From contig NC_135808.1 in NCBI RefSeq assembly GCF_964213995.1, forward strand, positions 22,134,001 through 22,198,000: a stretch of 64,000 nucleotides of DNA, in the 5' to 3' direction. Below, piece after piece: positions 2,248 to 55,368 of the stretch. Under the pieces are notes generated by a model. The model was not told the DNA's origin. It did no database searches and worked only from the letters and a program-made list of their open reading frames with translations. The stretch comes from Mustelus asterias (taxonomy: Eukaryota). The position numbers and the translations under genes were made by a program. Positions within the stretch are counted from its first letter, which is position 1; each line of letters opens with the position of its first letter.

Positions 2248-2311
2248 ATGGAAACATTTGAGATGATCAGAAAAATATACTACATGCTTCTTGCTGTCAT
2301 CGGTGTCCCTG
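2248..2311 (+). CDS. GPR139-like GPCR gene 1, coding exon 1 (METFEMIRKIYYMLLAVIGVP + 1 nt)
   Basis: ATG at 2248, then 21 codons plus G, then the donor GTAAGT at 2312. The peptide is nearly identical to the exon at 21430..21493 (-). It splices in phase 1 onto the acceptor at 4933 to give ...GVP-V-NLL. Confidence 0.9.
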
Positions 2312-2559
2312 GTAAGTGAACATGACGTTTGAAATTGTCTTCATCGATGAGTATGAGCTCATCTCCGATTTTACGCTGATTTGGTGGTCACCATTATACA
2401 AACACAAAATCAATGATATTTTAAGTCGTGTCCTGAATTAAACTTATGGTTACATTATTTTACCTCAACTGAAAGTAAGACACCAAGTAATTGCTCATAG
2501 TGGAACGCTTTGTACAACACAATAGATTTTAGCATCGTGAACTTGCAAAGTGAAGCAAA

Positions 2560-3365
2560 TACTGGGAGTAACTGTCACTGCAGTATTGTACCGAGAGTGG
2601 ATGTTAACCGAAATGTACCACTTGACCCCCAATGGCCATGATTACTGGGTGTCTCTTTCACTGTAGAATTGCACAAAGTGTTGGTCATTAACTAGAGTGG
2701 AACACATGATCCCAGTGATTATGTATTACTGGGGGTGTCTGTCACTGAAGCATTGTACTGCGTATGGATCACTAACTAGACTGAATAGAATAGAATCCCT
2801 ACAGTGCAGAAGGAGGCCATTCGGCCTATCGAGTCTGCACCGACCACAATCCCACCCAGGCCCTACCCCCACATATTTTACCCGCTAATCCCTCTAACCT
2901 ACGCATCTCAGGACTCTCAGGGGCAATTTTTAACCTGGCCAATGAACCTAACCCGCACATCTTTGGACTGTGGGAGGAAACCGGAGCACCCGGAGGAAAC
3001 CCACGCAGACACGAGGAGAATGTGCAAACTCCACACAGACAGTGACCCGAACCGGGAATTGAACCCGGGACCCTGGAGCTGTGAAGCAGCAGTGCTAACC
3101 ACTGTGCTACCGTGCCGCCAGGTGTACTGCAACACCTGATCAGAACCACATATTACTGTAACTGTCTCACAGTGTGGGTCTTAACTGGAATGGAACTCCC
3201 GACCTCAGTGACCATATATTACAGGGAGCATCTTTCACTGTGGAATTGTACTGAGTGTGTGTCTCTAACTGGAATGGAATTCCTGATGCGAGTTACCACG
3301 CATTGCTGGGTATATTCATCATTGTGGAATTGTACTGAGAGGTTTACCTACCTGAGTGGAACCAA
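2560..3365. repeat. Degenerate 84-bp tandem repeat (about 6 units) in intron 1 of gene 1, interrupted by an HE1 SINE
   Basis: Units of the form tac/tgctggg...tcactgtggaattgtac...taactggaatggaa start at 2560, 2643, 2727, 3220 and 3304 (adjacent units 83-84 nt apart). Confidence 0.75.
2786..3119 (-). mobile_element. HE1 (V-SINE), young full-length copy
   Basis: tRNA-like head GGCGGCACGGTAGCACAGTGGTTAGCAC...GGTTCAATTCCC, V-domain GTGTGGAGTTTGCACATTCTCC...TTTCCTCCCACAGTCCAAAGA and a CR1-like tail ending GATTCTATTCTAT. Confidence 0.92.
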
Positions 3366-4807: not shown

Positions 4808-4863
4808 ACACGCATACACACGTGCTCACACACACGCACACGCGTGCACACACATGCACTCAC
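4808..4863. repeat. (CA)n/(CACG)-type microsatellite
   Basis: acacgcatacacacgtgctcacacacacgcacacgcgtgcacacac, about 70 bp upstream of the exon 2 acceptor. Confidence 0.75.
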
Positions 4864-4933
4864 TGAATTAGGTCTCACACTAAGAATGTTTGGTTGATAA
4901 TTTCTAACCTATTACCCATTATCTCTTTTCCAG

Positions 4934-5895
4934 TCAATTTACTGACAACTATGGTCCTGTCCCGGGGAAGGTGTGGCCTCTCCACCTGCACCACTCATTA
5001 TTTGTTCGCCATGGCCTTGTCGGATCTAATATTCAATTTCATTGAGGTGGTACTGCATCGGATCAGTTCATGTTATTTCCCAGGATCTTTTCTGGACATC
5101 ACCCCTGTGTGTCGTGTTGTCATTATCCTGCTTTATGCAGCTGGAAACTGCTCGACCTGGTTTACTGTCATGTTCTCCTTTGATCGCTTTGTGGCCATTT
5201 GTTGTCAGAAACTGAAAATAAAATATTGCACTGAGAAAACTGCAACTGTGGTTCTATCAACAATCTGCATCCTGAACTGGTTAAAATGCATTCCCTATTA
5301 CTTTGCATATCAACCTGAAGTGATAATTAACAATACTCCCTGGTTCTGCATAACGAATCCAAGCTATTTTACTGACCCAGCTTGGGTGACATTTGACTGG
5401 CTTGGTAAGATTTCAACTCCATTTCTCCCATATATTTTAATTCTGTTGTTCAATGCTCTGACAGTCAGATACATTTTAGTGACCAATCGTGTCCGCAAAG
5501 GACTGATGGGTCAGAACAAGGGGGACAATCACATTGACCCAGCGATGGAGAGCAGAAGGAATTCCATGATTTTACTCTTCACCATATCTGGCAGCTTCAT
5601 ACTTCTGTGGCTTTTATATGTGATCAACTTCTTATATTATAGAATTACAGGAACTTTTCCCGTAGACTACAATGATTCTTCATATATTTTTAAGGAAGTC
5701 GGATATATGCTGGCTGAATTAAACTGCTGTACAAACACTTTTATTTATGGGGTAACTCAATCCAAGTTCAGGGAGCAGTTCAAGAGTTTAGTGAAATATC
5801 CGGTTACATTAATTATTCAATTTATGAAAAAAGAAAGCAAAAGAGGGAAGCTCCTCCATACTCGGTCAATTGAATCGTACGAAGAATCATTTTGA
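4934..5895 (+). CDS. GPR139-like class A (rhodopsin-type) GPCR gene 1, coding exon 2; intact, 341 aa in total
   Basis: Acceptor tctcttttccag|TC at 4933/4934, with an open frame to TGA at 5893-5895. Seven hydrophobic segments; motifs LFAMALSDL (TM2), FSFDRFVAIC (TM3, DRF), PFLPYILILLFN (TM5), LLFTISGSFILLW (TM6), LNCCTNTFIYG (TM7) and SKFREQF (helix 8). The motif pattern resembles GPR139/GPR142. 64+962 nt = 342 codons. Confidence 0.88.
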
Positions 5896-9295: not shown

Positions 9296-9301
9296 CAATA
9301 G

Positions 9302-10202: not shown

Positions 10203-10209
10203 AAACTTA

Positions 10210-13690: not shown

Positions 13691-15375
13691 CGATAGGAAA
13701 TGCACGGGAAGAAGGGTGGGGATCCTCCAAAGAAAGGGGGAAGAGCAGGGGATGTGGCGGTGGAAATGGAGGAGCTGGAGGACAGAAAAAAGGGGAAAGG
13801 AGAAGGGGAAGATAGAATTGGGAAAGGAGAGAGTGCTCACTGTGGGGAAGGGAATGGGAAAACTGGTTGGGAATGGAGTAAGAGAAGTGGAATCAAATTT
13901 ATTCACAGACAGGTTTCACAATACTGACTGGGATTTATAATTGGGATGTGTGAGAGGTTGTAGCAATGCTGAAAGTTATTGTTCACTCCCAGTGTCATTA
14001 AAAAAGGTCACGGTGCGTGACCGAATTCCTAATATGAATGACACTGACAAAGGAGGCAATTATTGCCCATCTCTCATTTCCCCAGATCTGTTCCTGTTAA
14101 AAAATCTACTCAGTGAACACATATTGAAAACAAACTGCAAATGCACCCCTTTACAAACCGGTGACCTTTCTATTCTTTACACTGCTCCTGATCCCTGGAA
14201 GTTTGTGCGGCTGCACGCAACTCCAGATAAATGGAACCTCCTGCAGCTCCAAACCTCCTCCCCATCTCTGTGCACTCCTTCAGCTCCTCGATTCCTCTTC
14301 ATTTCCCAAGCTTCCTCCACGGTCTACTTCTTGCTATTTCTGTAGCCTCCTTCAGCACTACACATCCTTCCTATCCCTGTCAGCCCCTTTGGACCTGGCA
14401 CCCCGTCATATGCCTGTAACATCTTCCAGCCATGGTACGCTGCAGGTGGGTGACCGTTACTGCCACAAGTTTAGACAGTACAAGTCTCACAAAGCCATTG
14501 CCTCTGTATTAAAGATGTAACTTTATTTAAATCAGCGGCCACCAGGAGTTAATGAAAGTAGCTCTGACAAAGAGCATCAAAACCTCTCCACTGAATGCAA
14601 CACATAGCATCAAAAACAGATCAATTATAGTTTGTTCTTATCAATTATCTTATCAATTACTTTCAGTAACTTTAAAATAATCATCTTCAAGAAAGATAAA
14701 TCAACAATAAAGACTGACATATGATTTCGCAAATAGTGTTCCACTCCTTAGCATAAAGTTACTTTATTAGTCCATGAAATCCGGAAGCTAACTCCTCTTT
14801 TGGCTGACCGCACACCCTGGTTGCCTAGTAGCCTAATATGCTCAGTCCAAACCTCAAATACAAGTTCTCACGGGTTCGCTTAAAGGTCACTGTCGATCCA
14901 GACTAACTCATGACACCACGTCCAGGCACCAGTTCATCACGTTCAGACAGTGAATAAACCCTATTCATGAAACACGATCAAGTGTTCTGAACGTACTTTC
15001 CAACCGAAACTTCAACTGGTAAAACTTACATGTTTCCAAGGTCCAATTATTCCCTCCAAATATGGCTTCATACTAATATTTTTACTATGGTGCCGAGTAA
15101 AAAAAAGCTTTTGGCTAAAGCGAACAATATTCTTTAAAATCAATAATAATATATTGAAAATATCAGCATATGCATCTAACAATGAGAATCACTCGTTTGA
15201 ATCAACTACTGCATCTCATCATTGTAAATTGATTCTTGTTAGCTGATAAACTTATTTTAAAGTCATTTAACTGAATGCTCCGAGTTCTGTCAGTGACTTC
15301 ATGTCTACTGGTTTAAAAATCTTACCACCCCATGCAGAGTTCCACTTACATACTCCTCGCCATTTTTCAGTTTCA

Positions 15376-16246
15376 TTAATTAAGTAACTGAAGAATTGAT
15401 ATAACCATATTTGTGATCAAATTCTTGAACTGCTCCCTGAATTTTGACTGAGTCACCCATAAATGAAAGCATTTGTGCAACAGTTTAAACTCAGCAACAA
15501 AACTGCAACTTCTGAAAAGATATATAAAGAATCGTTGTAATATTCAGGACTAATTCCTGACAGGTTATAATATATGAAATCGATAACATACAAAAGCCAC
15601 AGAAAAATGAAACTTCCAGATATGGTGAAGAGTAAAACCATAGACTTCCTTCTGCTTTCCATCTCTGGGTCATTGTGATTTTCTCAATTGCTCTTATATC
15701 TCAGGTCCTTACGGACTCGACTGGTCACTAAAATGTATCTGACTGTCAGAGCATTGCAAAGCAGAATTAAAATATATGGTAGCAATGGTGTTAAAATCTT
15801 ATCAAACCAGTCAAATCCCACCCATGCAGGATCAGTATGATAGCTTGGTTTTGCAAGTATCTCTCCAGGTTCAGATGTAAAGTAGAAAGGGACGTCTTTT
15901 AAACAGAGAAGAATGCAAGTTGGTGCTCGGACGATGATCGCAGTCCTCTCAGTACAGTCTTTAGCTTTCAGCTTCTGGCAACATATGGCCACAAATAGTC
16001 GAAGGAGAAAGACGGTGAACCAGACGGAACATTCAGTTGCTGCATAAAACAGGACAATGGTAACACTACACACAGGCGTAATGCTCAGGAAAGACACTGG
16101 GAAATAATATGAACATATCCGCCACAGTATGACCCCAGTGATAATGACCAGTAGATCCGCCGTTGCCATGGACACCAGGTATCGAGTTGTACACGTGGAG
16201 AGGCCACACTTACCCCGGGACAGGATCACAATCACGATTAAATTAA
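15376..16246 (-). pseudogene. GPR139-like gene 2, exon 2 (disabled)
   Basis: Acceptor ttccctcattacag| at 16247, then VNLIVIVILSRGKCGLSTCTTRYL... Lesions: the DRF motif is scrambled by offsetting indels (about 15995-16012), the ECL2 segment with the PWFC cysteine is deleted, there is an in-frame TGA at 15684-15686 (KSN*ENHNDPEMESRRKS), and a 1-nt deletion at IYG (about 15456). The natural end is ...ISILQLLN* at 15376. Confidence 0.9.
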
Positions 16247-21429: not shown

Positions 21430-21493
21430 CAGGAACACCGATAACAGCAAGAATCATGTAGTATATTTTCCTGATGCTGTGAAATGTTTCCAT
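21430..21493 (-). pseudogene. GPR139-like gene 2, exon 1 (METFHSIRKIYYMILAVIGVP + G); the exon itself is intact
   Basis: On the reverse strand, ATG at 21493, a 64-nt exon and donor GTAAGT from 21429. Paralogous to 2248..2311. Confidence 0.88.
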
Positions 21494-22008
21494 GCTTTCA
21501 TGTCTGTAGTGATCTGCCCCTTCGTGTGACAGTAATTGCACTGTATATAACACTTGCGAACTGATGACACTTAAAGGACCTTTACTTTGTACCCAGTGGG
21601 ATAACATTGAGGTGGCAACAATGTTAAAGTAGATTGTTGAAAAACAAACAAGTGACAGGTCACGAAAGCCTGAGTTACATCCCTGTTCTCGCAGAACATC
21701 TTTACCATTGAGATTGCATTAGACAATTAAAACCAGTGATCAACTTCGCTCACATTAATTAAGGAAAAATGGAACCTGTATTCACGCAGATCAATGGGAC
21801 CCCATTGGTCCATCTCCAGCCTTCATTCTATTTCAATGGACAGTTCACATTGCCGTGCATATTTATTTTACAATTAAAAACCAAACTTGAACTATTCTCA
21901 TGATTTCTTTTCCACTGCGTTTGAGAATTTTAGATATTGTCTTTAACTGTGGCCATCTCATCAAATAATTCAAGTGAGCATTTTACATCAATGGATTCTC
22001 AATCTACG

Positions 22009-22929: not shown

Positions 22930-23488
22930 AAGCCAACGCTACCTCTAAATGTAAGGCAGGAAAGGCAGCTCATCAGTCCTGGTTTTGAGTTTGAGACGAG
23001 ATGGAAAGTGTGATTAGGAAGCATGGGGGTCGCAAAATGGATTGAAGAAACAATTGCATCAGTGAGGATGGGATGACATGCTAAAGGGGTCATCAATCCA
23101 AACCATGTCGGTTGAGGTGAGTAATGAAAAGGACGCCATTTCACTGTTAGGATTGCACATTAGACTCAGCAAACAGAGAGATAGAAGGGGAAATGCGAAG
23201 ACACATCTCCGGGAAGCACAACAACAAAAAACAGTTTGGCAGTAATAGTGGAAATATTATTTCAAGCGCCATAATAACAACACAATAAAATTAGTGTGAA
23301 AGGGAGAAATGGAGCCAAATTCTTAAAAGGCATTCAGGACAACATGCGCATATACGTGCAAACCCAGTACAAGATGTGGCAGTTATAGACTTTGCTTCAG
23401 GGCAAGTATCTAGTCTTGGGGATAGGCATGTCAGTTGCGGAGCTCATTCGTGAAAACAATCATAATGGAATTAGACTTAGATTATTCA
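22930..23488 (+). mobile_element. Old CR1 endonuclease-region fragment
   Basis: Degenerate APE sequence ending NHNGIRLRLF|M (compare SDHNSVSFRTVMEK in the CR1 ORF at 36595..36984). It resumes at 24809 after the younger insertion. Confidence 0.55.
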
Positions 23489-24801
23489 AGCAGACGCAGC
23501 ATGGATTCATGAAGGGAAAGTCGTGTTTGACGAATCTACTGGACTTTTATGAAGATGTCACCAGTGCGGTTGACAGAGGGGAACCGGTGGATGTGGTGTT
23601 TTTAGATTTCCAGAAGGCGTTCGATAAGGTGCCTCACAAAAGGTTGCTGCAGAAGATTGGGGTACACGGAGTTAGGGGTAAGGTGTTGGCGTGGATTGGG
23701 GATTGGCTATCTAACAGGAAGCAGAGAGTTGGGATAAATGGGTGTTTTTCTGGTTGGCAGTTGGTGACCAGTGGCGTGCCGCAGGGATCGGTGCTGGGGC
23801 CTCAATTGTTTACCATTTACATAGATGATCTGGAGGAGGGGACTGAATCTAGGGTATTCAAGTTTGCTGATGACACGAAGGTGAGTGGGAAAGCGAATTG
23901 CGTGGAGGACGTGGAAAGTCTGCAGAGAGATTTGGATAGGCTGAGTGAATGGGCGAGGATCTGGCAGATGGAATATAACGTTAGTAATTGTGAGGTTATC
24001 CACTATGGAAGAAATAATCGTAAATTGGAATATTATTTAAATGGAGAAAAATTACATCGTGCGACTGTGCAGAGGGACCTGGGGGTCCTTGTGCACGAAT
24101 CACAAAAACTCAGTCTGCAGGTGCAGCAGGTGATCAAGAAGGTAAATGGAATGTTGGCCTTTATCGCGAGGGGGATAGAATATAAAAGCAGGGAGGTCTT
24201 GCTGCAACTGTACAAGGCACTGGTGAGGCCGCAACTGGAGTACTGTGTGCAGTTTTGGTCCCCTTATTTGCGAAAGGATATATTGGCCTTGGAGGGAGTG
24301 CAGAGAAGGTTCACCAGGTTGATACCGGAGATGAGGGGTGTAGCTTATGAGGAGAGATTAAACAGATTGGGTCTGTACTCGTTGGAGTTTAGAAGGATGA
24401 GGGGTGATCTTATAGAGACATATAAGATAATGAAGGGGCTGGATAGGGTCGAGGTGGAGAGATTCTTTGCACTTAGAAGGGAAACCAGAACTAGAGGGCA
24501 GAGCCTCAAAATAAGGGGGGGGGGGCGGTTCAGAACAGAGTTGAGGGGGAACTTCTTCGCTCAGAGGGTAGTGAATCTCTGGAATTCTCTGCCCATTGAA
24601 GTGGTGGAGGCTTCCTCGTTGAATATGTTTAAATCACGGGTAGATAGTTTTCTGATCGATAAGGGAATTAGGGGATATGGGGAGCAGGCGGGTAAGTGGA
24701 ACTGATTCGCTTCAGATCAGCCATATTCTTGTTGAATGGCGGGGCGGGCTCGAAGGGCCAGATGGCCTACTCCTGCTCCTATTTCTTATGTTCTTATGTT
24801 C
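23489..24801 (+). mobile_element. Young 5'-truncated CR1 (HER1-type) LINE; RT C-terminal frame still open
   Basis: QHGFMKGKSCLTNL, LDFQKAFDKVPH, GVPQGSVLGP and KFADDTK, open to the stop at 24705. Tail (TTCTTATG)n; TSD TTATTCA at 23482-23488 and 24802-24808. Confidence 0.95.
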
Positions 24802-24821
24802 TTATTCATGGCATAGGGCCA

Positions 24822-29329: not shown

Positions 29330-32300
29330 TAAGTAGGATTCAACAATGAAGTTTCTTTAGAGTCAGTGTGAAAGATTTGATATAATTGCGTTGTTCTTCT
29401 TTTAGTACTGAAAGACGAGGTAAACTGCCAGAAAAAAAAATGTATAGGCACTTTGTAGAGTTCCAAAAAACAACTTGGTTTGAATATTGGAGCTTACTGC
29501 ATCAATTAGAACCAAATTTAAATTATGTGCAGAGCAGTGCATAAAGAGTGCATTTGGAGCAACTTCCCTAATCTTTGTTTGGAGACCAGATATTTCACCT
29601 GACATAGTGCTTGCTCCATCGTAAGACTGACCGTAACACATAGTTATTGACAGCCCTAAGTTTTCGATTGCTGGAAGAAGAATGTTGAAAAAATCTTCAG
29701 CCCTTGCTCCAGGTAATTCGCTGAATTGTATAAATCGTTCCACTGCATCACCGTTTACTGTTACATATCGCAAGGATAAAGAAAATTGATCAGTTCTGCC
29801 GATATCAATAGTAGAGTCAACAATTATTGCAAAGTACTTAACCACCTTGATTTCAGCTATTATCTTTGATAGAACCTGGGCTGATAAGGACTGTATCAGA
29901 TCATTTTGTATGTCAGGGCTGAGATATGTTGCATTTCCATCACTCAGTGATAAATGATGCTCCAGTAATGTATCACTTTTGGCAAACACATTAATAAGTT
30001 CCAAAACATTGCCTTCATTCGTACTTGGGGAACCTAAACCTTGATACTCGCGATGACCACGGAAGGCCAATCCCTGTTTTCCCAAATAGAGAACTGCATC
30101 TATAATATGGGTTAGAATCATCCTATTTTTCTCTATCTCTTTCCTTTCCGCCGTTACAAGGCCAACCAGGACAGCTCTGTCGTTGAACAAACGAAAAGTG
30201 GTAAGGAAAAGATTTTTCTCCGCTTTTTTGTGACTTTCACTTTTTTCATGTTTTATTATTTTGTGCGTACCTTTAACAAAAATCTTGCAACCAGTTTTTG
30301 GATCACTCCAACCATCCGACCGATTTGCAAAAAGCCAACAAGCAAACCAAAGCACAGTGTTTGCTCTTCGTGAGTAAACCAGCTAGTGCCTATCCATTTC
30401 ACAACCAATTTTAACTTGTTTCTTGTACCAAGTTGCACTGAAATGACGTCCAGCTTCATCTTTTGGAAAACTGTCAAAATTATCTTTAAGTACTGGCTGA
30501 CAAGGGCCAAACTCCAGAAGAGCAAGTACTAGATCAGGTGTTACAGGTGTTTCACAAAACAGGTGTGGATCTGTTGGATATTCCGTATGTGTGTCAATGA
30601 TTGCACATAGTCTTACTGTTTCATCTTCGTCCTCTGGGCGATAGTCTGCTGAAGTGGTCACAGCTCCACTTCCACCACCTGTGCAGCCGCAGCAGCCAGG
30701 GTGCAGTCAAAAGCCCCTAGGATGAAAGTCGGTAACAGCAAGTCTTTAGAGGGTTCCACCTCAGATGCAACCACAACGGCCTGTGCACCGTCTCCATCTC
30801 CTGGGCTGAAGGTAGGTAGCAAGTCTTCAGAGGATTCCATCTCTGGCGCAGCGAACGTCGTGTGCTTGCCGAATGAAAAGTAGGCGTCCAATCTCTGACA
30901 TTTTGACGAATCTTTTTCTCGATTTGCAACTTCTTTCATCTTCTTTCTGTCCCACCCAGATAGTTTATTCTTCTTAGTGTTTTTCTCCATGGCATTCCAT
31001 ATCAGAAAAAAATCTATGATAGTTTTTCAAGGCAATCTTAACAATAGACATATAACACCGTCATAATAAAACGAAAAAGCAACTTAAACTTGCCTTTGGA
31101 ATATTTATGCCGTATATTAATTTGAACAACCCCGTAATCCATATCGCCGTTCTCACTTTGCTCCCGCTGAGCATGCGTGGCAGGGCGTGTGCACTTGTAC
31201 CCTCCAGAAGCTGGCAATCATGGCAATAATGACAATCATGTCGCTTCCCTAAACTCATTAATTCATTGGCTATGCTCAAGACACAGCTAGCTCAAAATAA
31301 CCAGTGCTTAAAATGGACAAAGCAATCAAATGTTCATGCAAGCGGAGAGATACAAGGTGTCAGATTCTTGTTCAGCTTTGGAGTAGTTAATTCTAATGAT
31401 ACACAGTCTTGAATGAATGGTGACTAAAACTATAAATTACGCGCCGAATATTTTCACTAAACTATTCCTGCGATGTCATATTTTGTTCTTCATCTTTGCT
31501 ATGTATTTAAATGAGCTGGTTTATTTAAATTAAAGCTGCCAATGTTGGACTCTGTAGTGGTTTAAATTCTTCAAGTGATAATCACCAAATCTATTTAATC
31601 ACCCAATCTCGGCTGGTGATGTCCGTCGGCGAGGGATGCTTGGTCTCGACTTCCCGTTCGTCGCCGTGGCTGCATATTTATGTCCTTCGTGGCCTCTGCA
31701 ATTATCCTCGTGATTGCATGCTCTCTCGGGCGATTGCATGCCTTCCTCGCTGCCTGAAGTCCCCGCATCCGTATCGCATCCTGGGATTGCAGTACACGGA
31801 TCGAGGACTTCAGATCTCGGGAAGAGATCTGAGGGGCCGTGAGGAACACCCCGTTGAAAAGGCGCCACTTTTGAAGAATGTGCTCAGGGGCAGCGGTCGT
31901 TCCCCCTGCTCCCTCTCTAGCTTCGCCACTGGATTCAACGATTCTATGAAATGCCACATGCTTCTTCCCCAGTGGAGTCAGATCACATTCCCGTGATTCT
32001 TTTTAAACCCCGAGGACTGCCTGTTTCTGCAGCCACCTTAACACGACATTAAAAAAAATATTTCCTCTAATGCAAGTACCCAGAGTGGCTCACTTCTGCG
32101 TGGAAGAGTTGGAAAAGTGTCACCCGCACGGATCTATGGTGGGTTATCACTCCACTATTTGGAGAGGTGGAGCTGGGTCCAGAAAGGTGCATGTTCAGAG
32201 TTTGCTGCATTCCGGATCGTAATCGCCAATGAGAGACTCGCACAGTACCAACACACTGCAGTCACGCTGAAATGGATTTGTCTGAAGGTAAATGTACAGC

Positions 32301-32860
32301 ATTCATCGAACGCTCAGTAATGACCTGCTCCGTGGCAACTTTGCAAAGAATTTCCAAAAGCCCATATTAACTATATGCACCGCATTTCCACGTCACCTTG
32401 TCTTTTACCTCCATAGAACATGCTACGAGCTTTGACAGGCACAATCTTCTCTCACCTTTCGAAATAAGTGTTTCCTATCGATTTATTGCTCTTATTTCTT
32501 GTTAACATGGATTGCGGGTAATTTCATTCAGATAAGCATCCACATTTTCGGCACTATAAGTGGATTTGTTTTGAAATCAGGACTGTATTGCTGGAGGTAG
32601 GAAGTGGGAAAAGTCATTCCATTTAGTGTCGAAATTGCAGGGGAGAGAGTATTGCAGTAACAAATCATAACGCCCAAACCAGCCCCAATTTTCTACTGAC
32701 CTAATCTTCTCATCTTTTTCGTTTTTCTCATAACTGGCTTAATCTCAATTACGTTTTTCTTTCATTTTTCTGTTCTATTTTTCTCCTTCTTCAATCTGTT
32801 CACTGCGATTTTTCTTTCCCCCTTTCCCCATGTTGTTACTCAGCCTTTATTCTCCAGTTG

Positions 32861-35800
32861 ATCTGGTTCACGTCGGCGCCAACAACGCAGAGACGAAACG
32901 AGGAAAGAGTTTCTGCACATTCAGTATGATGAGCGAGGGAACTCAATTACGAAGGTGAATCTTAATGCTTGTAATCACAGAGGCACTTGCAATTTGGCAT
33001 GGGGCAGATGACGTTAGGGGGAGGAATAGGGAGAGGTAGAAGATTCTGACAAGGCAAGAAGACTGGATGTGGAGATGTTTTTGTCTCTGGCTGGGTGGTC
33101 TGAAACAAAGGGTTACAGTCTCAGAAACGGAGTCGGCCATTTAGGACTGAGATTATCAGAACCCTCTTCACCCAGAGAGTGGTGAACCGGTGCATTTCCC
33201 TGCTAAAGAAATACATGGAGGCCACTCCTGAATGAATTTAAGGAGATAGATAGAATTTTAGGTTCTAAGGGCGTATAAAATGTAGGGGGAGCGGGTGCGA
33301 GGGTATGGCGCTGAGCTAAAGGATCAACCAGTAATATACCAAGAATCCCGATACCGACCCCTGGGGATCACATTGAAAACATTCCTCCAGTTCGAAAATG
33401 TGCATTTACAATTACTCACTCTTCCTCCAATTCAGCCAATGTTTTTTTATCCGTGTCCCTTTTGTTCCATGGCCTATATTTTTCGCATAAATCTATTGTG
33501 TGGCACTGCATTTAATGCCTTTTGAAAGTCCCACGTAGTATACCACATTTGAATGAAATAACTAGCATTACTCTCATCCACCCTTTCTGTTTACTCCTTA
33601 AAAAACTCTAGAAAGTTATTTAAACACAATTTCCACATGAGAAATCAATGCTGGCTCTTTCGGACCAACACACTGATTCCAATGTGACTACTAATTTTAT
33701 CCTGAGTGTGTGAACTTTGACAGTTCATCCCGCTGATCGATCTCTCGCCTCCCGTGAAACTACCAGCAGTACGAAGCCGCTCCCGGGAAGGAGGAGTCTG
33801 ATTATAATTTTAAATACTCAATTTCATCCCGGGCTCACTTGCCTCAACGGCCTCGCCGATTAAGGTGTTCATAAGTGAGGATCACGGATGCTCCCCCACC
33901 TATGAGGACCAGATGTGATGGCTAGCTGGAAGGACTGGAAGCCATTGAGTCCATCCAGGTGCTCGCGGGCAGGGGACATTGCTCGGTGGGCAGTTCCAGC
34001 CTAGGACCTTGTCACTGCCTGACTGGCATCCTGGCCTGCGCATCCGGTCCCTACTACTGGTGTTAAACTGACTGTTATGTACTTGTTTGGCTTATCCTTT
34101 CAATCTATTTTGAACAATGGCATCATGTTTACAATATTCCAGGATTTGGGCACTTTCTCCGAATCAAGGGAAGACTGAATGATTATGACCAGTAACCTTA
34201 CAATTTCTGCTTTGACTTCCTTAAATGTCCTTGGATACATTTCATCCAGTCCGTTGCCTTGTCAATTTTAAGTCCCAACGGTCTATATGCAAATCCGCTT
34301 ATAATATTTGAAGATTGTGAAACATAAACAAAGTTTGCTCTCTCAGGTATATATAAAAACTCCCGTGTCCTGTCACAAAGAGTTCTCCCTGGTGACCTGG
34401 TCAGACAAGGAGCAACACACATGACTGGCATGTTTGAAAGCAAACTCAGAATGCTATGAGATGACCTCCAGAATATTCACTCCCTGCTTCCAGTCTAAAA
34501 ACAAAGAACAAAGAACAATACAGCACAGGAACAGGCCCTTCGGCCCTCCAAGCCCGCGCCGCTCCCTGGTCCAAACTAGACCATTCTTTGGTATCCCTCC
34601 ATTCCCACTCCGTTCATGTGGCTATCTAGATAAGTGTTAAACGTCCCCAGTGTGTCAGCCTCCACCACCTTGCCCGGCAGCGCATTCCAGGCCCCCACCA
34701 CCCTCTGGGTAAAATACGTCTTTCTGATATCCGTGTTAAACCTCCCCCCCTCACCTTGAACCTATGACCCCTCGTGAACGTCACCACCGACCTGGGAAAA
34801 AGCTTCCCACCGTTCACCCTATCTATGCCTTTCATAATTTTATACACCTCTATTAGGTCACTCCTCATCCTCCGTCTTTCTAGTGATAACAACCCCAGGT
34901 TACCCAATCTCTCCTCATAACGAAGCTCCTCCATTCCAGGCAACATCCTGGTTAACCTCCTCTGCACTCTCTTTGAAGCCTCCACGTCCTTCTGGTAGTG
35001 TGGCGACCAGAACTGGACGCAGTATTCCAAATGCGGCCGAACCAACGTTCTATACAACTGCAACATCACACCCCAACGTTTATACTCCATGCCCCGTCTT
35101 CTCAATGCAAGCATGCCATATGCCTTATTCACTACCTTCTCCACCTGTGACGGCACCTTCAAGGATCTGTGGAGTTGCACACCCAGTTCCCTCTGCGTAA
35201 CTACACCCTTTATGGTTCTGCCATTTAACGTATAGCTCCCCCCTACGTTAGTTCTACCAAAATGCATCACTTCGCATTTACCTGGATTGAACTCCATCTG
35301 CCATTTCTTTGCCCAAATTTCCTATCTATATCCTTCTGTAGCCTCTGACAATGTTCCTCACTTTCTGCAAGTTCAGCCATTTTCGTGTCGTCCGCAAACT
35401 TACTGGTCACCCCAGTTACACCTTCTTCCAGATCGTTTATATAAATCACAAACAGCTGAGTTCCCAATACAGAGCCCTGCGGAACACCACTCGTCACAGG
35501 CATCCAGCTGGAAAAAGACCCTTCCACTACCACCCTCTGTTTTCTGTGACCAAGCCAGTTCTCCACCCATCTAGCCACCTCCCCCTTTATCCCATGAGAT
35601 CCAACCTTTTGCACCAACCTACCATGAGGGACTTTGTCAAACGCTTTACTAAAGTCCATATAGACGACATCCACGGCCCTTCCCTCGTCAACCATTCTAG
35701 TCACTTCTTCAAAAAACTCCACCAGGTGAGTGAGGTATGCCCTCTCTCTCACAAAACCATGCTGACTCTCGTGAATGAGTTTATTCTTTTCTAAATGCAC

Positions 35801-38800
35801 ATACATCCTATCTCTAAGAATCCTCTCCAACAACTTCCCTACCACGGACGTCAAGCTCACCGGCCTATAATTTCCCGGGTTATCCTTCCAACCCTTCTTA
35901 AATTACGGGACCACATTAGCTATCCTCCAATCCTCTGGGAACTCACCTGCGTCCAGTGACGAGACAAAGATTTGCGTCAGAGGCCCAGCGATTTCATCTC
36001 TCGTCTCCCTGAGCAGCCTTGGATAGATTCCATCAGGCCCTGGGGATTTGTCAGTCTTTATATTCCCTAAAAAAACTAACACTTCCTCCCTTGTAATGGA
36101 GATTTTCTCGAACGGGTCAACATTCCCCTCCGAGACATTCCCAGTCAACACATCCCGGTCCTTTGTGAATACGGACGCAAAGTATTCAGTTAGGATCTCC
36201 CCTACTTCTTTGGGCTCTCAGCATAATTCCCCACTTTTGTCCCTGAGAGGTCCGATTTTTTCCCTGACAACCCTTTTGTTCCTAACGTATGAATAAAATG
36301 CCATGGGATTCTCCTTAATCCTGTCTGCCAAGGACATTTCGTGACCCTTTTTGCCCTTCTAGTTCCTCGTTTGAGTTCTTTCCTACTTTCTTTGTATTCC
36401 TCCAGAGCTCCCTCCGTTTTTAGCTGCCTGGACCTAATGTACGCCTCTCTTTTCTTTTGGACCAATCCCTCAATTTCCCTGGTTATCCACGGTTCTCCAA
36501 TCCTACCCTTCCTATCCATCTTGTTTACATGCACATGCCTATCCTCCAGCCCTAACAACCGTTCCTTAAAAGACTCCCACATGCCAGATGTGGATTAACC
36601 CTCAAACAGCCTCTCCCAATCAACAGCTGCCAATTTCTGCCTAATCCCACTAAGGTTAGCCTTCCCCCATTCCAACACTTTACCCTTGGGACACCACTCA
36701 TCCTTTTCCATCACTGTCCTAAAGCTAACAGAATTGTGGTCACTATTTGCCACATGTTCCCCTACCGAAACTTTGAAGACCTGACCGGGCTCATTCTCTG
36801 GTACTAGGGCCAGTATAACCCCCTCTCTCGTCGGGCTATCTACATAGTGTTCCAAAGAACCTTCCTGTACGCATTTTGCAAATTCCTCCCCATTCAGGCT
36901 CCCAGCCCGACGCGATTTCCAGTCAATACCAGGGAAATTGAAGTCTCCCACCACAACAACCCTATTTTTCCTGCACCTATCCATTATCTCATGACATATC
37001 CGTTATTCCACCTTCCTTGGGCTGTTGGGGGGCCTGTCGTATACCCCAAACATAGTGACTGCGCCCTTCCTGTTTCTGAGATCCACCTACAGTGACTCGT
37101 TACACGACCCCACTGAATTGTCCTCCCCCAGCACCGCTGTAATATGCTCTCCAACTAATACTGCTACTCCCCTACCTCTTTTGGCCCCTCCTCTGTCTCG
37201 CCTAAAACACTTGTAGCCTGGAATATTCAGCTGCCAGTCCTGTCCCTCCTTGAACCAAGTCTCTGTCACCGCAACCACATCCAAATTCCTCGTAAGCATT
37301 AAGGCCTTAAGTTCATCTGTCTTACCTGCTACGCTCCTTGCATTGAAGTAGATGGACTCCAGACCTCCAGGCGCAGTGAAGTCATCCTCCCCCAGAGTGC
37401 TCTTCTTCTTTGCCAGCCTTGTCCTGGCCCCCAAGCTCGTCCCCAGCCTCTACACTTGTAGACATAATTTTTTGGTCCCCACCCCTCTGCCATATTAGTT
37501 TAAACCCACACGAACTGCACTCGCAAAACTCCCAGCCAGGATATTCGTGCACTTCCAATTTAGTTGTGACCGGTCCTTCTTGTACAGGTGCCCTCCTCTC
37601 TTGAAAACTTCCCAATGATCCGAATATGAAGCCTTCCCTCCTGGACCAGTCCTTTAGCCAAGCGTTCAATTGCACTATCTACCTATTCCTAGCCTCACTG
37701 GCCCTCGGCATTGGGAGCAGCCCAGAGATTGCCACCCTGGAGGCCCTACCTTTTAGCCTATTTCCCAACTCCCTGAATTGCTCTCGTAGGATCCCCCTGC
37801 TCTTCCTATCTACGTCATTTGCACCAATGTGTACAATGACATTCGTTTTTTTATCCTCCCCTTTTAATATGCCTCCTATCCGCTCGGAGACGTCCAGTAC
37901 CCCAGCACCAGGTAGGCAGACTACCATCCTGGAGTCCTGTTCGTACCCACAGAACCACCTGTCCGTGCCTCCAACCGACGCGTCCCCCACCACTATTGCT
38001 CTCCTAATCCCTCTCTTTCCTTTCTGGGCCACAGAGCCTGACTGTGTGCCAGTGACCTGGTCACTGTGGCTTACCCCTGGAGAGTCATCCTCCTCCACAC
38101 TATCCAAAACAATCTACTTGTTTTGGAAGGGGACAACCACAGGTGACCCCTCCACTAATTGCTCACTCCCCTCCCCTCTCACAGTTGTCGCCGAGCCCTT
38201 CCTATTATGAGAGACAGCCACTGGAATACTCTCTGGTACGTTAGCCTTATGACCTTTACTCCTCCTAACTGTGACACACATGTCTTCTCCCTGAGGCCCC
38301 GGTGTAACTACTTGCTTATAACTCATGCCTATTTGTCTCTCATTCTCCCTGACTCAACGAAGGTCATCAAGCCGCTGCCCCAGTTCCCTGACGCGGTCCC
38401 TCAGGAGCTGTAGATCCACGCACCTGGCGCAAATGTGAACTTCCGGGCGACTACGTGTTTCCAGGAAGTCCCACATCCCACACCGAAAGCAACGAACTGT
38501 CGAGAAAGACAACAAGTTATTCATGGCGATTGGCGCTCATCTCTCCGTGACCAGTCACCTGATGATCAGGTGTAATGCTGTGTGAATTTCTTATGAATAA
38601 CGTACCTCTGTTGACATGATAGCTTTCTCATCAGCAGCATCATCTCACAAAGCGCTCAGTCAGACTTCTTTAACAGCAGATCCCAGACCCACGACATCCA
38701 GCAAACATAAGGATAGGGGGAGCAGATGCATGTGAGCAGCACCAGTTCCAAGTTCAGGTCACCACATCCCCCATCCCCCACCCCGCAACACACGAGTTGC

Positions 38801-39189
38801 ACAAGCTCCTGCTCGGAAAAATATATATTGCTTCAACTTACTGGATCACACTCCTGGAACTCATGCCTTAACAGTGCTGTGGGTGAATCGACAGCGCACA
38901 GACTGTGGCGGTTGAAGGAGAAGGCATGGGGACATCTCAGAGTAACGAGGCTTGGGAATAAATGAATGAAATAAAAAACAGTTTGCAGCCATTTCGTCCA
39001 GCTGCCAATTTCAGCGTTCCATTCTGACAATCCAAAGCTGGACATTGTGGACACAATGCAGTTTGCCGAAGTATTCCTAAGCCGAGTCTGTCAATTTCAT
39101 TCTGATCAAGAGAAACGGAGATTATTGTATGAGTGTGCCTTGATGAGTTGCATTTAGAAATACATTTAGTAAAATTGAGATTGAGATTA
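32861..39189 (+). repeat. Tandem segmental duplication, copy 1 (interrupted by a 4-kb CR1)
   Basis: 32861..34500 plus 38503..39189 are collinear with 39190..41718. Confidence 0.9.
34501..38502 (-). mobile_element. Near-full-length CR1 LINE (ORF1 zinc finger/leucine zipper plus SGNH esterase; ORF2 APE plus RT), frameshifted
   Basis: CFRCGMW...ICARCVDLQLL (38400-38500); IVVGDAS...CLPGA...VIVHIGAND (37679..38107); YFNARS...VAVTETW (37087..37434); VVGDFNFP; MDFSKAFDKVPH, GVPQGSVLG, KFADDTK; tail (TTCTTTG)n at 34501-34518. Confidence 0.95.
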
Positions 39190-41718
39190 ATTTGGTTCAC
39201 GTCGGAGCCAAGACTGCAGAGGAAACTCGGAAAGAGTTTCTGCATAGTCAGTATGATGATCTGGTGCACTCTATTAAGAAGGTGAATCTTAATGCTTCTA
39301 ATCTCAGAGCCACGTGCAATATGGCATGGGATAGATGAAATTAGGGAGAGGAACGCATGGCTCAAAGATTGAAGTGGGAGAAGTGGGGTCCAGTTTGTGT
39401 AGACCTGGCTCCAGTACTGGGGAAATTGGGGGCTCCACATTTGGGACGGTCAGCACCTGAGTACTGTTGGGATCTGTGTTCACATGAACCGCATACATAT
39501 GGATTTGCAAAGGATTTAAAACGAAATAGCGAGACGAGAGGTCAAATGTGGAAAGATGTGTATCTATAGCTTAAGATACGGAGAGATACAAAATTTTGAC
39601 AATGCGAGAAGACTGGTTGTAGGGATGTTTATGCCTCTGGCTGGGAGGTCTAGAACAAAGGGTGACAGTCACAGGAACGGTGTAGGCCACTTAGAACTGA
39701 GATTATCGGAACCATCTTCACTCAGAGAGTTGTGAACCGGTGCATTTCCCTGCCACAGAAAGATGTGGAAGCCACTGCTGAATGAATTTAAGGAGATGGA
39801 TGGAATGTTAGATTCTAAGGGCGTGTAAATTTTATGGGGGGTTGGGGGGGGGGAGGGTGCGGAGTGCGAGAGTCTGGCGCTGAGATAAAGGATCAACCAG
39901 TAATATACCAAGAATCCCAATACCGACCCCTGGGGAACACCACTAAAAACATTCCTCCAGCCCAAAAATGTGCATTGACTACTATTCTCCCCTTCCTCCG
40001 AGTCAGGCAATTTTATATCCATGTTACACCTGTCCCTTTTGTTCCATGACCTATATTTTTCCGCATAAATCCATTGTGTGGCACTGCATTTAATGCCTTT
40101 TGAAAGTCGCACATAGGATAACACATACGAATGAAATGCCTCGCATTACCCTCATCCACCGATTCTGCTTGCTTCTTACGAAACTCCAGAAAGTTAGTGA
40201 AACACGATTTCTGCATGAGAAATCAATGCTGGTTCTTTCCGACCAACGCACATATTTCCATGTGACAACTAATTATATCCTGGGGGGCGGGGTGGGGGGG
40301 GGGCGAGCTTTTCCGGCTCACCCCACTGATCGATCTCTCGCCTCTCGTGATACTATCAGCAGTGCGAAGCCGCGCCCGGGAAGGAGGGAGGCTGAATATG
40401 ATTTTTCAAAGTCAATTTCATCCCGTGCTCACTTTCCTTAACAGCCCCGTCGATGGAGGTCCTCACAAGTGAGGATCACGTGTGTATCCCATGCCGATGG
40501 GAACCAGGTGTTATGACCAAGCTGGTGGGACTGGAGGCCATCGAGGCCATCCAGGTGGTGCCGATCCAGTACATATTCCTGATGTTAAACTGACTTTTAT
40601 GTAATTTTTTGGCTTATCCTTGCAATCTATTTTGGACAGTGGCATAAGTTTTACAATTTTTAACAACCTTTGGGCACTTCCCCCGAGTCAAGAGAAGACT
40701 GAACGATTATGACCAGTACCTTCCAATTTCTGCTTTCTCTTCCTTAAATGTCCTTGGATACATCTCATCCAGTTCGTTGTCTTGTCAATTTTAAATACCG
40801 ACAGCTGATATGCAATTCCTCCTCATTATATTTGAAGATTGTGAAACATAAACCAAGCCCGCTCTCTCAGGTCTATATAAAACATTCCAGTATCGTGTTT
40901 CAAAGAGTTCTCCCTGGTGACCTGGTCAGACAAAGAGCAACACACATGATTGGTATGCTTAAAAGCAAACTCTGAATGCTGTGAGATAACCTCGAGAATA
41001 TTCATTCCCTGCTTCGAGTCTAGAAAGACCACAAGTTATTCATGGCGATTGGCGCTCATCTCTCCACCAACAGTCGGCTGATTTTCAAGTGTAATGCTGT
41101 GCGGAGTGCTTCTGAATAATATACATGTGTTGGAATGAGAGCTTTCTAATCAGCAGCATTACGTCAAAAAACGTCCAGGCAGGCTTCTATAACAGCAGAT
41201 CCCAGACCTGCCACCTCCACCAAACATAAAGATAGGGGGAGCAGGTTCATGAGAGCAACACCACTTCCAAGTTCATTTCAGGACATTCCCCAGCCCCCAC
41301 CCCTCAACACCACGAGTCGCACAAGCTCCTGCTCGGAAATATATACTGCTTCAACTGTTACTGGGGTCATACTCCTGGAACTCATTCCCTAACAGTGCTG
41401 TGAGTGGATCGATAGCGCACAGACTGCGGCGGTTGAAGGTGAAGGAATGGGGAAATCTTCTCAGGGTAACTGGGCCTGGGAATAAATGAATGAAATAAAA
41501 ACCTGTTTGCAGACATTTCATCCAGCTGTCACTTTCAGGGTACATTCAGCGTTCCATTCTGACAATCCAAAATTGGTCACTGTGGACACAATGCAGTTTG
41601 TCGAAGTATTACGAAGCCTAGCTTCTCAAATTCATTCTGATGAAGAGAAACAGAGATTATTATATGCCTTGATGAGTTGCATTTGGATATACATTTCGTT
41701 AAATTGAGATTGAGATTA
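39190..41718 (+). repeat. Tandem segmental duplication, copy 2 (about 2.5 kb; mosaic of old CR1, MITE and LINE debris)
   Basis: Both copies start at(c/t)tggttcacgtcgg and end aaattgagattgagatta. Confidence 0.9.
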
Positions 41719-42117
41719 GGTTTGCTTGCTGCTGTGTTTGAGGTGACAAAAATATCATAGCTTTAATGAAAAAAAAAGGCCCGGGACGCTTCACAAAAAC
41801 AAACGCAAATTTCAACACCAAGCCCGTTGGAGAGATTTGAAGACAGGTGGCCAGACGCTTGTTCAAAACCTTTGAAGAAAACGATAAAGGAGAACGGAAA
41901 TGTCGAGATTTCGAGAGGTTTAGGATGGGAATCTCTAAGCCGAGGGCTCAGGCAGCTGAAGGTGCAACCACCAATGGAGTGGTTCAGAATCTGGGATGTG
42001 CAATGGAACAGGGTCTAGAGAAATACATAGACCTTAGAGGAGTGTATGTTTGCATGAATTATGGAAGGAGGGAGGGGCGAGAGTATATGTAGGGAAAGTG
42101 GAGAAGGTGAGCGCGAT

Positions 42118-42620
42118 ATGATTTGATTTATTACTTTCGCATGCATTGGGATAGAATGGAGAATATTGTTTCCTGCGTGCTATACAGACAAAACACACTG
42201 TTGACAGAATACGTAGAGGATGTAAGACGCATCTTGATGAGTACATATGGGGAGTGAATCGAGGAATACGGACCGAGTAAGGGCAAAATGTTTTTTCTCA
42301 GTTTAGTTCGGGCATCATGATTGGCACAGGCTTGGAGTGTTGAAGGGCCTGTTCCTGTGCCATAGTTTTCTTTATTCTTTGTTCTTTGTACATATGGCAG
42401 AAGGAAATGAGTGGGTGCAGAATATAAAGTTACAGTCGCACCTAGCGTGTAGAGAAACACCAAAGTAATATAAGGTAGGTCCATTCATAAGCCTCATGGT
42501 AGCAGTCGGTTGGTGTGTGATCTCAGACAATTGTATCTTTTTATTCCGAAGGAAGTAAGTGGAAGAGAGTTTGTCAGGAGTGCGTGTGGTCTGTGATAAT
42601 GCTGGTGGGGTTGAGGTGGA
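42118..42620 (-). mobile_element. Rex1/Babar-type LINE 3' end with a (+) CR1 3' end nested at about 42200-42390
   Basis: The reverse complement matches the 3' UTR at 61460-61666 (aaacaatac...aataaatcaaat). The nested piece ends gaagggcctgttcctgtgc...ttctttgttcttt. Confidence 0.65.
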
Positions 42621-52224: not shown

Positions 52225-53420
52225 TTGTTGGAGATGGACACTGCTGGGCAGTTGTGTACTAAGAATATCACTTGCCAATTTTCAGATCAATGCTGCATAT
52301 TGTCCGTGTCTTGCTGCAGGTGGACGCGGACCTGTTCATTTCATGAGGTGTTGCAAACGGTGCTGAACATTGTGCAGTTATCAAAGAGCATTCCCACTTC
52401 TTTTGCAAATTCGTTGGAGATGGTTGGTCCTTGGACACTGTTCAGATTAACAACAGGAGCGGTGTTGTGGGTCTGAGATGATTGGCCTCCAAGGACCACA
52501 ACCATCTTCAATTGTGCCAGGTCTGAGTCCAACAAACGGATGATTTATTTTCCCCTGATTCCGATTATTCCAGTTCTGCTGGTGCTCCTTGATATCTTAC
52601 TCAGTCTAATGCTGCCTTGACGTCAAGAGCAGTTACTCTCACCTCACCAATTAATGTGGATCTTGTCTCTGTTTGCATGAGGTCAGTAATGAGGTCAGGA
52701 CCTGAATGGTCCTGGCAGCACCCAAGTGAGCATTATTGAGCAGGTTGTTCATCTGTAAGTGCTGCGTGATAAGACTGTTTCTGACACCTTCTACCACACT
52801 TCTGATGATGGAGAACATGCCAAGGAGTTCATTATATTCAACCTGTCCTGCTTTCCATGGACCGGGCACACCTAGCCAATTTCCCACCTGGTCTGCTGTT
52901 TGCCAGCATTTAATTGCAGTGTATCAGGTTGGCTTGGACAAGCATTTCGTTCTGGAGCAGCATCCTTCATTCTACTGCTGAGATGTAGCAGGGCCCAAAG
53001 GCTTTGTATCATCCAGTACCCTCAGCATCTTTGCTGACATTCTTTCTGTGAATTGAATTGGCTAAAGATTCACAGGTGCAACGCTGAGGTTTCGTAGGTG
53101 ATGAATTGTCTATAAGGCCGATCTGGGTGAAGATGGTTGCAAATGCTTCATCATTATCGTTTGTGCTGATATATTGTGCTCGCCCCGTCATGAGGAACAG
53201 GATGGCCCCGCACATGTTCGATGGTCGGACCCTTGCAATCCCCCAAAACATGTGCTGCGGGATCGAAATGTCTCCTCCCCCCTCCAAATTCTGCAATGTT
53301 GGAATGTAATCGGTGATAACGTTGCATCTGTTGTAATGTGACCCATGATAACAAGCTGTAAGGGTCAGCGGACCCAATAAACCATGTAACCAAGTACAGA
53401 AGGATGTGATGGTCAGCTGA
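52225..53420 (-). mobile_element. Old non-LTR retrotransposon (CR1-group) RT fragment
   Basis: LAQLKMVVVLGGQSS...SVQGPTI...EVGMLFDNCTMFS (degenerate QGSVLGP and FADD) and SIIRSVVEGV...HLQMNNLLNNAH. Confidence 0.65.
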
Positions 53421-54519
53421 CCAGCTGACTCAATATAAATAAGAATCTGTTGGGAATTGTCAGATTGCTTGGAATGGCCCAGGTTGAGGCCTTAAGTATT
53501 GTTACATTTTTATTGTCTACACTGGAAGAGTTCCTTCTGGATCAACAAAAAAGAGCTGCACAGGAAATGCCCAGTACTTTAAACTCCCATTCGACAATTA
53601 GCCAACACCTGGAATCATCCCAGTCTCCATTTTGAATCGGAGTCTGCATATGGTTCAGATTTAGTCAGCCAGGAAATGTTAGAAGAATCACTACCACTTC
53701 CAATTCTTCATAGCAATGGTGATCCGATTACCCCACCTCCCAACCCTGTGACAATCCGACTCGTATTCCCACTGACAATCCCACCTCTCCTCGTCTGCAT
53801 GACAACCTGACCATCTGATTTCCACGATATCCCACCTCCATGCACCCTCTGACTACTCATGCCCCTGAGCACACAACCTCCTAAGCTGCAAGACTAGCCT
53901 CCAATAACCCCATTCCTGATGTCCCCCTAATCAACGGACTCATTCCACTTACTTACCTTACATACTTAAATTCTTACCTGTCAAAGAGGGTGGAAGTTAC
54001 AGATTTTCAGCAGATGATGCCATAAAAACGGAATATGGATTGGTTGAGGATACAGGCGAAATCAATTATCTCCAAAAACCTAATACGCAGGATAATATGT
54101 ATAATAAAATGGTTGGCATTCGCAGCATTCAGTCTTTTAAACAAATATTGTTTCTATCTGAGCAGGTATGAGTTGTTGAGTGGAGGTGGAGAAAAGCATG
54201 TTCTGGCGCTTCCTTTAACTGCCCATTTACATTGCCGGGACTGGAAGATCTCACCAGCGTCAAGGGCTCGAACATCGAGCCCTGTGGCTTCTCTTCCCCA
54301 TCACGTCCTGTAGGGAAACTTGTAATGATGTTCCTCCCCCATCCGTGTCCAAACACCGAGCTCTTCCTCTCCACCATCACCACGACCGCAGGTATTTTTA
54401 TATCCTCAGTGATTCCTGATATCATTCAGTTGATTGAAAACTCGGGGTAAATGTTCCAATCACGAAGTGTAAGTTCTAGGACTTACCTCTGTCCTGCTCT
54501 GAATTGTTGTGATAATTAA

Positions 54520-55368
54520 GTCATTGAATAATGGATGTAAATGGCTATTTCAGTGCACTCTTGAACTGCTCCCTCAACTTGAGATGAGTTAACCCAGAAG
54601 TAAATCCAACAATATAACTTCAGAAGTATAACACGAACATCTGCAAGGAAGATTACTGGAACACACATGGTGAACTCCTCTGATAATATAATCTAAGAAA
54701 TGTATAACATACAATCACCACGAAGTGTAAAGCTGCCAGATATGCTGAAGAGTAATATCATAGACTTCCTCCGACTCTCCATCTCTGGGTCACTGCCATT
54801 CTCTCCATTGTTCTGACCTCTCAGTCCCCTGCAGGCTCGACGGGTGACCAGAATGTACCTGACTGTCAGAGCGTTGAGCAACAGAACTGAAATATATGGG
54901 GTCAATGGTTTTAAGATTTTATCAAACAAGCATAAGCCACCCATCCAGGATCAGTACAATAACTTGGCTTTTCAATGCAGAACCAGGGAACATTTCAATT
55001 ATCTCTCCAGGTTCAAATCTAAAGTACATGGGAATATCTTTTAAACAAAGCAGAATGCAAGTTGTTGATAGAACCACGGCTGCAGTTTTCTCAGTACAAT
55101 AATTTCTAACAGCAAGTGACCATACAAATCGATCAAATGAGAACATGACAGTGAATTTAATCAGAACATCCTGCAGCCGCATGAACACACACGGGGGTGA
55201 TTTCTCGGAAAGATGCTGCAAAATGATAAAAAAAAACAATGCGACACGGTATGACTGCAGTGATAATGACCAGTAGACGCACTGTTGCCATAATGGCCAA
55301 GTAACCAGTGGTGCAGGTGGAGAAGCCACATTTTCCCCGGGACAGGACCGAAATCGCCATTACATTAA
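54520..55368 (-). pseudogene. GPR139-like gene 3, exon 2 (heavily decayed; exon 1 not found in this window)
   Basis: Acceptor tttctcttccag| at 55369. VNVMAISVLSRGKCGFSTCTT, FTVMFSFDRFV, YCTEKTAAVVLSTTCILLCLKDIP, LLLNALTVRYILVT, DPEMESRRKSMILLFSISGSF and KLREQFKS are spread over several frames, with stops. Confidence 0.88.

Follow-up and report, generated by a model that had tools for sequence, protein, structure and literature searches.

Nematode srw genes are a chemoreceptor expansion out of the FMRFamide-receptor group, and the Mas-related (MRGPR) and formyl-peptide receptors are clustered class A expansions in sensory neurons and immune cells. GPR139 and GPR142 are placed with MIP and FMRFamide receptors (PMC8514136), and in bony vertebrates three subtypes of "GPR210"-type orphan paralogues of GPR139/142 are described (PMC6504862). 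Published work states that cartilaginous fishes have few G protein-coupled receptors (GPCRs) and that, although their olfactory organs are large, their olfactory repertoires are very small (10.1101/685743, 10.1101/2022.11.27.518102, PMC11979771); catshark has 8 odorant receptor (OR) or OR-like genes and 32-34 V2R genes (PMC11979771, 10.1101/2022.11.27.518102). We analyzed a 64,000-nucleotide stretch of Mustelus asterias DNA (the window; C8:22,134,001-22,198,000 of the assembly labelled G000, 3.68 Gb), in which an original prediction had placed three GPR139-like receptor paralogues, one intact and two broken. All three were located by six-frame scanning and alignment. Based on sequence comparison, the cartilaginous-fish family to which they belong is probably (roughly 0.55) a chemosensory repertoire for outside chemicals.

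Gene 1 is the intact paralogue. Its coding exon 1 (2248..2311, plus strand) comprises 64 nt (21 codons plus 1 nt), ends inside transmembrane helix 1 (TM1) and is followed by a GTAAGT donor. After a phase-1 intron of 2.6 kb, exon 2 (4934..5895, plus strand) encodes the remainder of a 341-aa class A GPCR having DRF, W6.48 without P6.50, NTFIY, and C3.25 plus a cysteine in extracellular loop 2 (ECL2). Gene 1 matched Pfam 7tm_1 (E 3e-19), and its best solved-structure relative by sequence was GPR139 (E 2.6e-11). The AlphaFold model of exon 2 (predicted local distance difference test score 91.5) contained all seven helices as well as helix 8 and a hairpin in ECL2, and its closest folds were peptide receptors (galanin, neurotensin) and GPR139. 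The class A hallmarks (seven TM helices, N1.50, D2.50, R3.50, W6.48, Y7.53, helix 8) were present in sequence and model.

The family resembles OR, TAAR, V1R/ORA, V2R/OlfC and T2R in its clustered birth and death, many pseudogenes, variable pocket, near-single-exon coding region and TATA promoters, the last known for a subset of OR promoters (PMC3247239). Among Pfam profiles, none for OR, TAAR, V1R, V2R or T2R matched gene 1 (only PF00001 at E<=0.01); by Pfam match alone, its ancestry is unrelated to that of the vertebrate chemoreceptor families. In size, the family exceeds the catshark OR or V2R sets by one to two orders of magnitude. It shares a deep receptor group with nematode srw and other FMRFamide/MIP-receptor-derived expansions (PMC8514136, PMC12208981). 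FMRFamide-receptor/Srw-type clusters (PF10324) were among its protein-language-model neighbours, PF10324 had no match in gene 1 at E<=0.01, and the family is a vertebrate expansion independent of srw. MRGPR and formyl-peptide receptors probably differ from it in ancestry and have far fewer copies.

A protein search of the assembly gave 5,972 first-look candidates, and all 125 that were scored were >=58% identical. Degenerate motifs had 2,645 (TM3), 1,428 (intracellular loop 3) and 700 (TM7) exact matches, with 0 for each reversed control. Because none of the three window genes fits the TM3 pattern, the 2,645 matches are a lower bound for the assembly. A contiguous sample of 1.464 Mb, from eight regions picked for containing matches, held 58 loci spanning TM3, 31 with intact exon 2 and 27 broken. 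The TM3 pattern recovered 23 of these 58 loci (by region, from 0/12 up to all). Among motif-sampled loci (first 30 matches, in contig order, of each of two sub-patterns), 42/59 were intact. Exon 1 was clear at 22 of the 31 loci of the contiguous sample with intact exon 2; 6 had weaker candidates and 3 had none. Family clusters were found on >15 large scaffolds, which carried only ~40% of the sub-pattern matches (42/110 and 61/144, with unlisted matches counted as lying on small scaffolds). Over ~75 kb, one small scaffold matched a large one at 98-99.8% identity, so some copies are possibly haplotype duplicates; haplotype duplication alone is insufficient for one variant found on >20 scaffolds. 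We estimate ~700 intact genes when every small scaffold is dropped and missed subfamilies are ignored, and, more likely, 1,500-3,000 among 3,000-6,000 loci; sampling suggests that exon 2 is intact in over half of the loci. Summed contig depth of TM3 relative to the single-copy GPR139 exon (~2,000-2,500x) is inflated by overlapping short contigs; it was excluded from the count and is an order-of-magnitude hint only. Related entries in public databases fell into 1,530 clusters at 90% identity. All 120 homologues among the matches listed were elasmobranch records (119 from sharks), and members were also found in skate, stingray and Callorhinchus records. The motif counts, contiguous sampling and many broken loci thus bear out the proposed large, clustered birth-and-death family, and the public records its presence across sharks, rays and a chimaera.

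For analysis of the ligand pocket, residue numbering was set from motif anchors, and 35 predicted pocket positions were scored. The ratio of pocket entropy to that of other TM positions was 1.70 in 83 G000 genes and 2.44 in 82 public proteins (p about 2e-6); in single-copy sets it was 0.75 (the orphan T1, described below) and 0.57 (GPR142 orthologues). Pocket-side diversification, proposed from the window, was thus seen in both family sets. Custom codon models, whose M0 likelihood agreed with IQ-TREE, were applied to 22 close paralogues (the window's subfamily) and 30 broader ones. Omega for pocket, other helix, intracellular and extracellular positions was 1.18, 0.50, 0.46 and 0.87, respectively, in the close set, and 0.58, 0.24, 0.35 and 0.50 in the broad set. 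Judged from these codon comparisons, purifying selection is shown on non-pocket helices and intracellular loops (0.24-0.35, broad set). M8 was favored over M8a in both sets (p=0.001 close, 4e-8 broad), and sites 3.29, ECL2 residue 162 and 7.35 were flagged as positively selected in both. Flagged helix sites in the broad set comprised 5/35 pocket and 5/154 other positions (p=0.02); the corresponding p for the close set was 0.09. The site-wise check of dN/dS therefore revealed some sites above 1 rather than uniform purifying selection.

The intron position agrees with that of GPR139 in codon and phase: in both, a phase-1 intron lies one codon before the TM1 Asn, and GPR142 has a matching exon start. 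The family has this intron, N5.58 and no P7.50, which are features of the wider GPR139/142/GPR210 group. GPR139 and GPR142, class A orphans activated by L-Trp/L-Phe, differ from the family in identity (~28-32%), in being single copy in G000 (separate loci L052 and L053), in lacking the C3.25-ECL2 cysteine pair and in having P6.50. A tree of 63 rows was constructed, including 16 public members and 24 rows chosen to represent the 110 distinct G000 genes, with amphioxus relatives and one long-branch sequence as the only outgroups. The family formed a clade (support 87/93) whose sister was a salamander orphan (P0240, P0269, P0272; 100/99), followed by an orphan present once per species in jawed vertebrates, sharks among them (P0231, P0287; 99/99). 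GPR139 and GPR142 formed their own clade apart from it (100/100). Forced grouping of the family with GPR139/142, as also expected if it consisted of GPR139 duplicates, was rejected by the approximately unbiased (AU) test (p=0.0002; chimaera members added, 27 rows, quick tree, long outgroup branch). Membership in the GPR139/142 group, as first supposed, was thus not upheld.

The salamander orphan carries the DPEM..RR.S loop and scored 142-169 bits against family members; no closer single gene was found in G000. It and the one-per-species orphan likely correspond to GPR210 subtypes of Rinne et al. (PMC6504862). GPR210-type orphans differ from the family in being apparently low-copy with conserved pockets (0.75x). 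The one-per-species orphan (T1; P0231, P0287 and relatives) occurs from sharks to reptiles, including coelacanth, fishes and amphibians, under the database label "probable GPR139", although it is distinct from GPR139; no bird or mammal was present among the named rows. Its pocket has invariant E2.61, R3.28, D3.29, Q5.42, R6.51 and D7.36, and TMEM183A is merged into two of its records, suggesting linkage. T1 has ERF, T at 6.50, NMYLY and a 23-24-residue N-terminal segment, and GPR139/142 have NFFLY. Single-copy relatives thus also show the short N-terminus, the DRF and NxxxY changes and the missing TM6 proline, and these features do not mark a sensory family. The Trp/Phe-binding residues of GPR139 are F3.33, H5.43, W6.48 and N7.38 (7.38/39) (PMC5430874). 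The family has Y39/R13/F7% at 3.33, D47/H24/E11% at 5.43, W96% at 6.48 and Y27/F27/I13% at 7.38, and gene 1 has Y, G, W and Y. Only W6.48 is kept across the family, which argues against the aromatic-amino-acid sensing suggested by analogy with GPR139/142.

The putative core promoter of gene 1 (2156..2182, plus strand) consists of a CCC-n-RTGGAGAT element (2156-2167) and a TATA box (2177-2182) 71 nt before the ATG. A TATA box was present 71-98 nt before the ATG in 16/18 representative promoters (~2 in shuffles), and the CCC-n-RTGGAGAT element, a motif derived from the same sequences, lay upstream of TATA in 9/18. This element resembles an EBF/O-E site, found with one mismatch in 7/18 promoters (0.3 in shuffled sequences). 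OR promoters are known to contain O/E and homeodomain sites, with TATA in a subset (PMC3247239). The conserved promoter supports working, probably tissue-specific genes, without naming the tissue.

A repertoire for external chemicals is favored because tuned pockets, a conserved intracellular face and birth and death match established chemoreceptor families. The earlier inference of a sensory or immune family is partly supported, as far as it drew on clustering, turnover and pocket variability; the minimal N-terminus and motif changes do not contribute. The receptors appear to descend from an orphan paralogue lineage beside GPR139/142, with birth and death ongoing since before the chimaera-elasmobranch split. 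They would be expressed in epithelia of a sensory or barrier kind (nose, taste buds, gill, skin or gut), probably few members per cell, each paralogue having a differently tuned predicted pocket and all a common intracellular output. All members may signal through a single G protein, of which Gq or Go with PLC would suit the microvillous Go/TRPC2 neurons of the shark nose. Because the pocket carries varying D/E/R/K/Y, the external ligands may be small molecules, either polar or aromatic, or else short peptides. Olfactory neurons of sharks are all microvillous and Go- and TRPC2-positive (10.1101/2022.11.27.518102); such neurons would suit these receptors. We tentatively raise the narrower possibility, itself doubtful, that the family, as 1,500-3,000 working genes from a FMRFamide/GPR139-related orphan lineage expressed sparsely in microvillous olfactory neurons, is an unrecognised main chemoreceptor class of cartilaginous fishes. 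If so, its size would equal that of the biggest mammalian OR repertoires and would overturn the view that shark smell relies on ~50 receptors.

Several results weigh against the chemosensory reading. The pocket contrast compares paralogues with orthologues and so shows ligand divergence, not ligand origin. Overall omega was 0.63 in the window's subfamily (0.34 in the broad set). Pooled pocket omega significantly above 1 was not found in either set (p=0.2 for the close-set value; broad-set value below 1). When the two halves were analyzed on their own trees, the M8 signal was present only in the N-terminal half (C-terminal p=0.41 and 0.07), and a weak recombination signal was found in the close set (p=0.012; none in the broad set). 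Small scaffolds carried about 60% of motif matches, and some of these were 99-100% identical to copies on large scaffolds. The exact EBF/O-E palindrome was present in only 1/18 promoters, and homeodomain sites were not enriched in these promoters (4/18; shuffled 6.0). The top-50 "brain & olfactory epithelium" list of catshark, in the accessible part of PMC11979771, contains no GPCR, which low per-gene expression would explain.

Four other explanations were considered. The family could serve innate-immune or barrier surveillance, sensing peptides from microbes or parasites on granulocytes, mast-like cells or epithelia in the manner of mammalian formyl-peptide and Mas-related receptors. Clusters, turnover and pocket selection give the same genomic signature, the pocket is polar and charged with peptide receptors (galanin, neurotensin) as nearest folds, and the EBF-like element (7/18, one mismatch) would also fit B-lineage cells. 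MAS1-related receptors are moreover reported lacking in sharks (10.1101/685743). However, no feature found here points to leukocytes. Known immune GPCR families number in tens, not thousands, and we consider this explanation unlikely.

A mostly neutral amplification, in which a few functional receptors were copied passively in segmental duplications and most intact frames have not yet decayed, is distinctly improbable. It agrees with the 27/58 broken loci, omega of 0.63 in the window's subfamily, near-identical C8 copies ~420 kb apart (99.6-99.95%), duplication units carrying whole head-to-head pairs plus repeats, and two intact C8 exon-2 frames without detected exon 1. Against it are omega of 0.24-0.35 outside the pocket, site-wise omega >1, promoters conserved across subfamilies, members still intact at only 32-48% identity to each other, and subfamilies common to shark genera. 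A germline or reproductive family (testis or sperm receptors, or recognition of gametes or mates), amplified through genetic conflict or sexual selection, would be in line with the large and very recent bursts of near-identical copies on small scaffolds, and in catshark, testis enrichment is reported for several OR and V2R genes (PMC11979771); no direct sign of it was seen, the deep, stable subfamily structure across species fits less well, and its probability is low indeed. The database label implies an expansion of GPR139-type sensors for Trp/Phe or for endogenous neuropeptides, acting in brain or gut; this is hardly credible despite the best solved-structure match (GPR139, E 2.6e-11) and identical intron position, given true GPR139 and GPR142 present once each, the AU rejection, and W6.48 as the only binding residue kept.

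We found no published description of the expansion; subscription journals were mostly uncovered, and supplements may bear on the point. The string "GPR139" was absent from the searchable supplements of PMC10115646, PMC8455134 (12/24 files) and PMC5278576 (7/10 files), and the accessible part of a 2025 GPR139 review (PMC12208981) does not mention family expansion. Family members are already in databases under the automatic label "probable GPR139". Irrespective of function, the existence of a class A family with intact genes on the order of 1,000 contradicts the statement that cartilaginous fishes have few GPCRs. It allows a direct test of the small-olfactory-repertoire view with existing catshark and skate RNA data, and the low-copy salamander sister gene is a tractable handle on ancestral function.

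The remaining window members are pseudogenes on the minus strand. Gene 2 exon 2 (15375..16246) was scored against an intact paralogue at G000:C8:22,318,758 (97%). It has 2-nt and 1-nt deletions near 16011/15998, a 24-nt deletion near 15857 through which the ECL2 Cys is lost, a 1-nt deletion near 15456 and a premature stop near 15686. Its coding exon 1 and upstream promoter region (21430..21633) contain the 64-nt exon at 21493-21430 and a TATA box altered to TACAAAG. On this sequence comparison (97% identity, four deletions, one stop, altered TATA), gene 2 is evidently a recent pseudogene. Gene 3 exon 2 (54520..55368), an older pseudogene, has 11 indels plus stops relative to its nearest intact paralogue (86%). 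The lesions of the two genes differ, and their independent pseudogenisation, as originally proposed, is confirmed. No exon 1 of gene 3 was found <=25 kb upstream. Intact exon-2 frames at G000:C8:22,262,742 and 22,306,225 likewise have no recognisable exon 1 within 20-25 kb. The sub-lineage of gene 3 may have lost exon 1 or may use a divergent one. A fourth family piece, overlooked in the first reading, is a partial duplicate of gene 3 from TM6 to the C-terminus (55645..55886, minus strand; 240 bp, 95% to 54515-54752) between CR1 long interspersed element (LINE) fragments. Of the motifs earlier ascribed to all three genes, only NALTVRYILVT is in 3/3; the others occur in one or two: LSRGKCGLSTCTT and NAFIY in gene 2, NTFIY in gene 1, DPEMESRRKSM in genes 2 and 3, and DRF in genes 1 and 3 (gene 2 is frameshifted there). 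The 64-nt first exon holds for genes 1 and 2 as a coding length, for the coding part only and for this subfamily only; across 31 loci, coding exon 1 spans 21-27 residues.

Gene 3 is paired head to head with the next plus-strand gene past the window, and the spacer between them is ~80% identical to that between gene 1 and its upstream neighbour. Near-identical copies return at ~420 kb on C8 (99.6-99.95%), and the duplication units contain whole head-to-head gene pairs plus repeats. Because paired-gene spacers are alike and near-identical copies recur at ~420 kb, growth is attributed to tandem segmental duplication with introns retained. Retroposition or transposon carriage was rejected, as neither the window nor any other locus examined had an intron-less copy. 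At G000:C8:22.28-23.61 Mb, genes repeat at 410-450-kb spacing with <=99.9% identity over 3.9 kb; these repeats reflect either large tandem duplications of very recent date or duplication in the assembly. A separate cluster at G000:C15:80.4-84.4 Mb comprises a divergent subfamily with ~one gene per 35-40 kb, nearly all stop-free among the matches listed, and its turnover is much lower than that of C8. G000 members only 32-48% identical to each other remain intact, and subfamilies are common to different shark genera.

Other repeats were found in the window. A broken hAT-type DNA transposon (26840-31250, minus strand) has a DUF4371 match at 29405-30382 and a weak hAT dimerisation match at 27224-27808; its right-hand end was not found. 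An insertion that has short inverted ends and contains a 779-bp near-perfect palindrome (28311-29088, 90%) splits it at ~27600-29330. Decayed CR1-type LINE copies, identified by RVT_1 and endonuclease matches, lie at 23389-24803, 34600-38100, 55900-58450 and 62070-62900. Two related 1.6-2.6-kb repeat copies (32858-34560 and 38499-42386; 80-85% identical) lie on either side of a CR1 element. A repeat of ~330 bp resembling a short interspersed element has at least 12 copies in the window, one of them in the gene 1 intron at 2790-3119.

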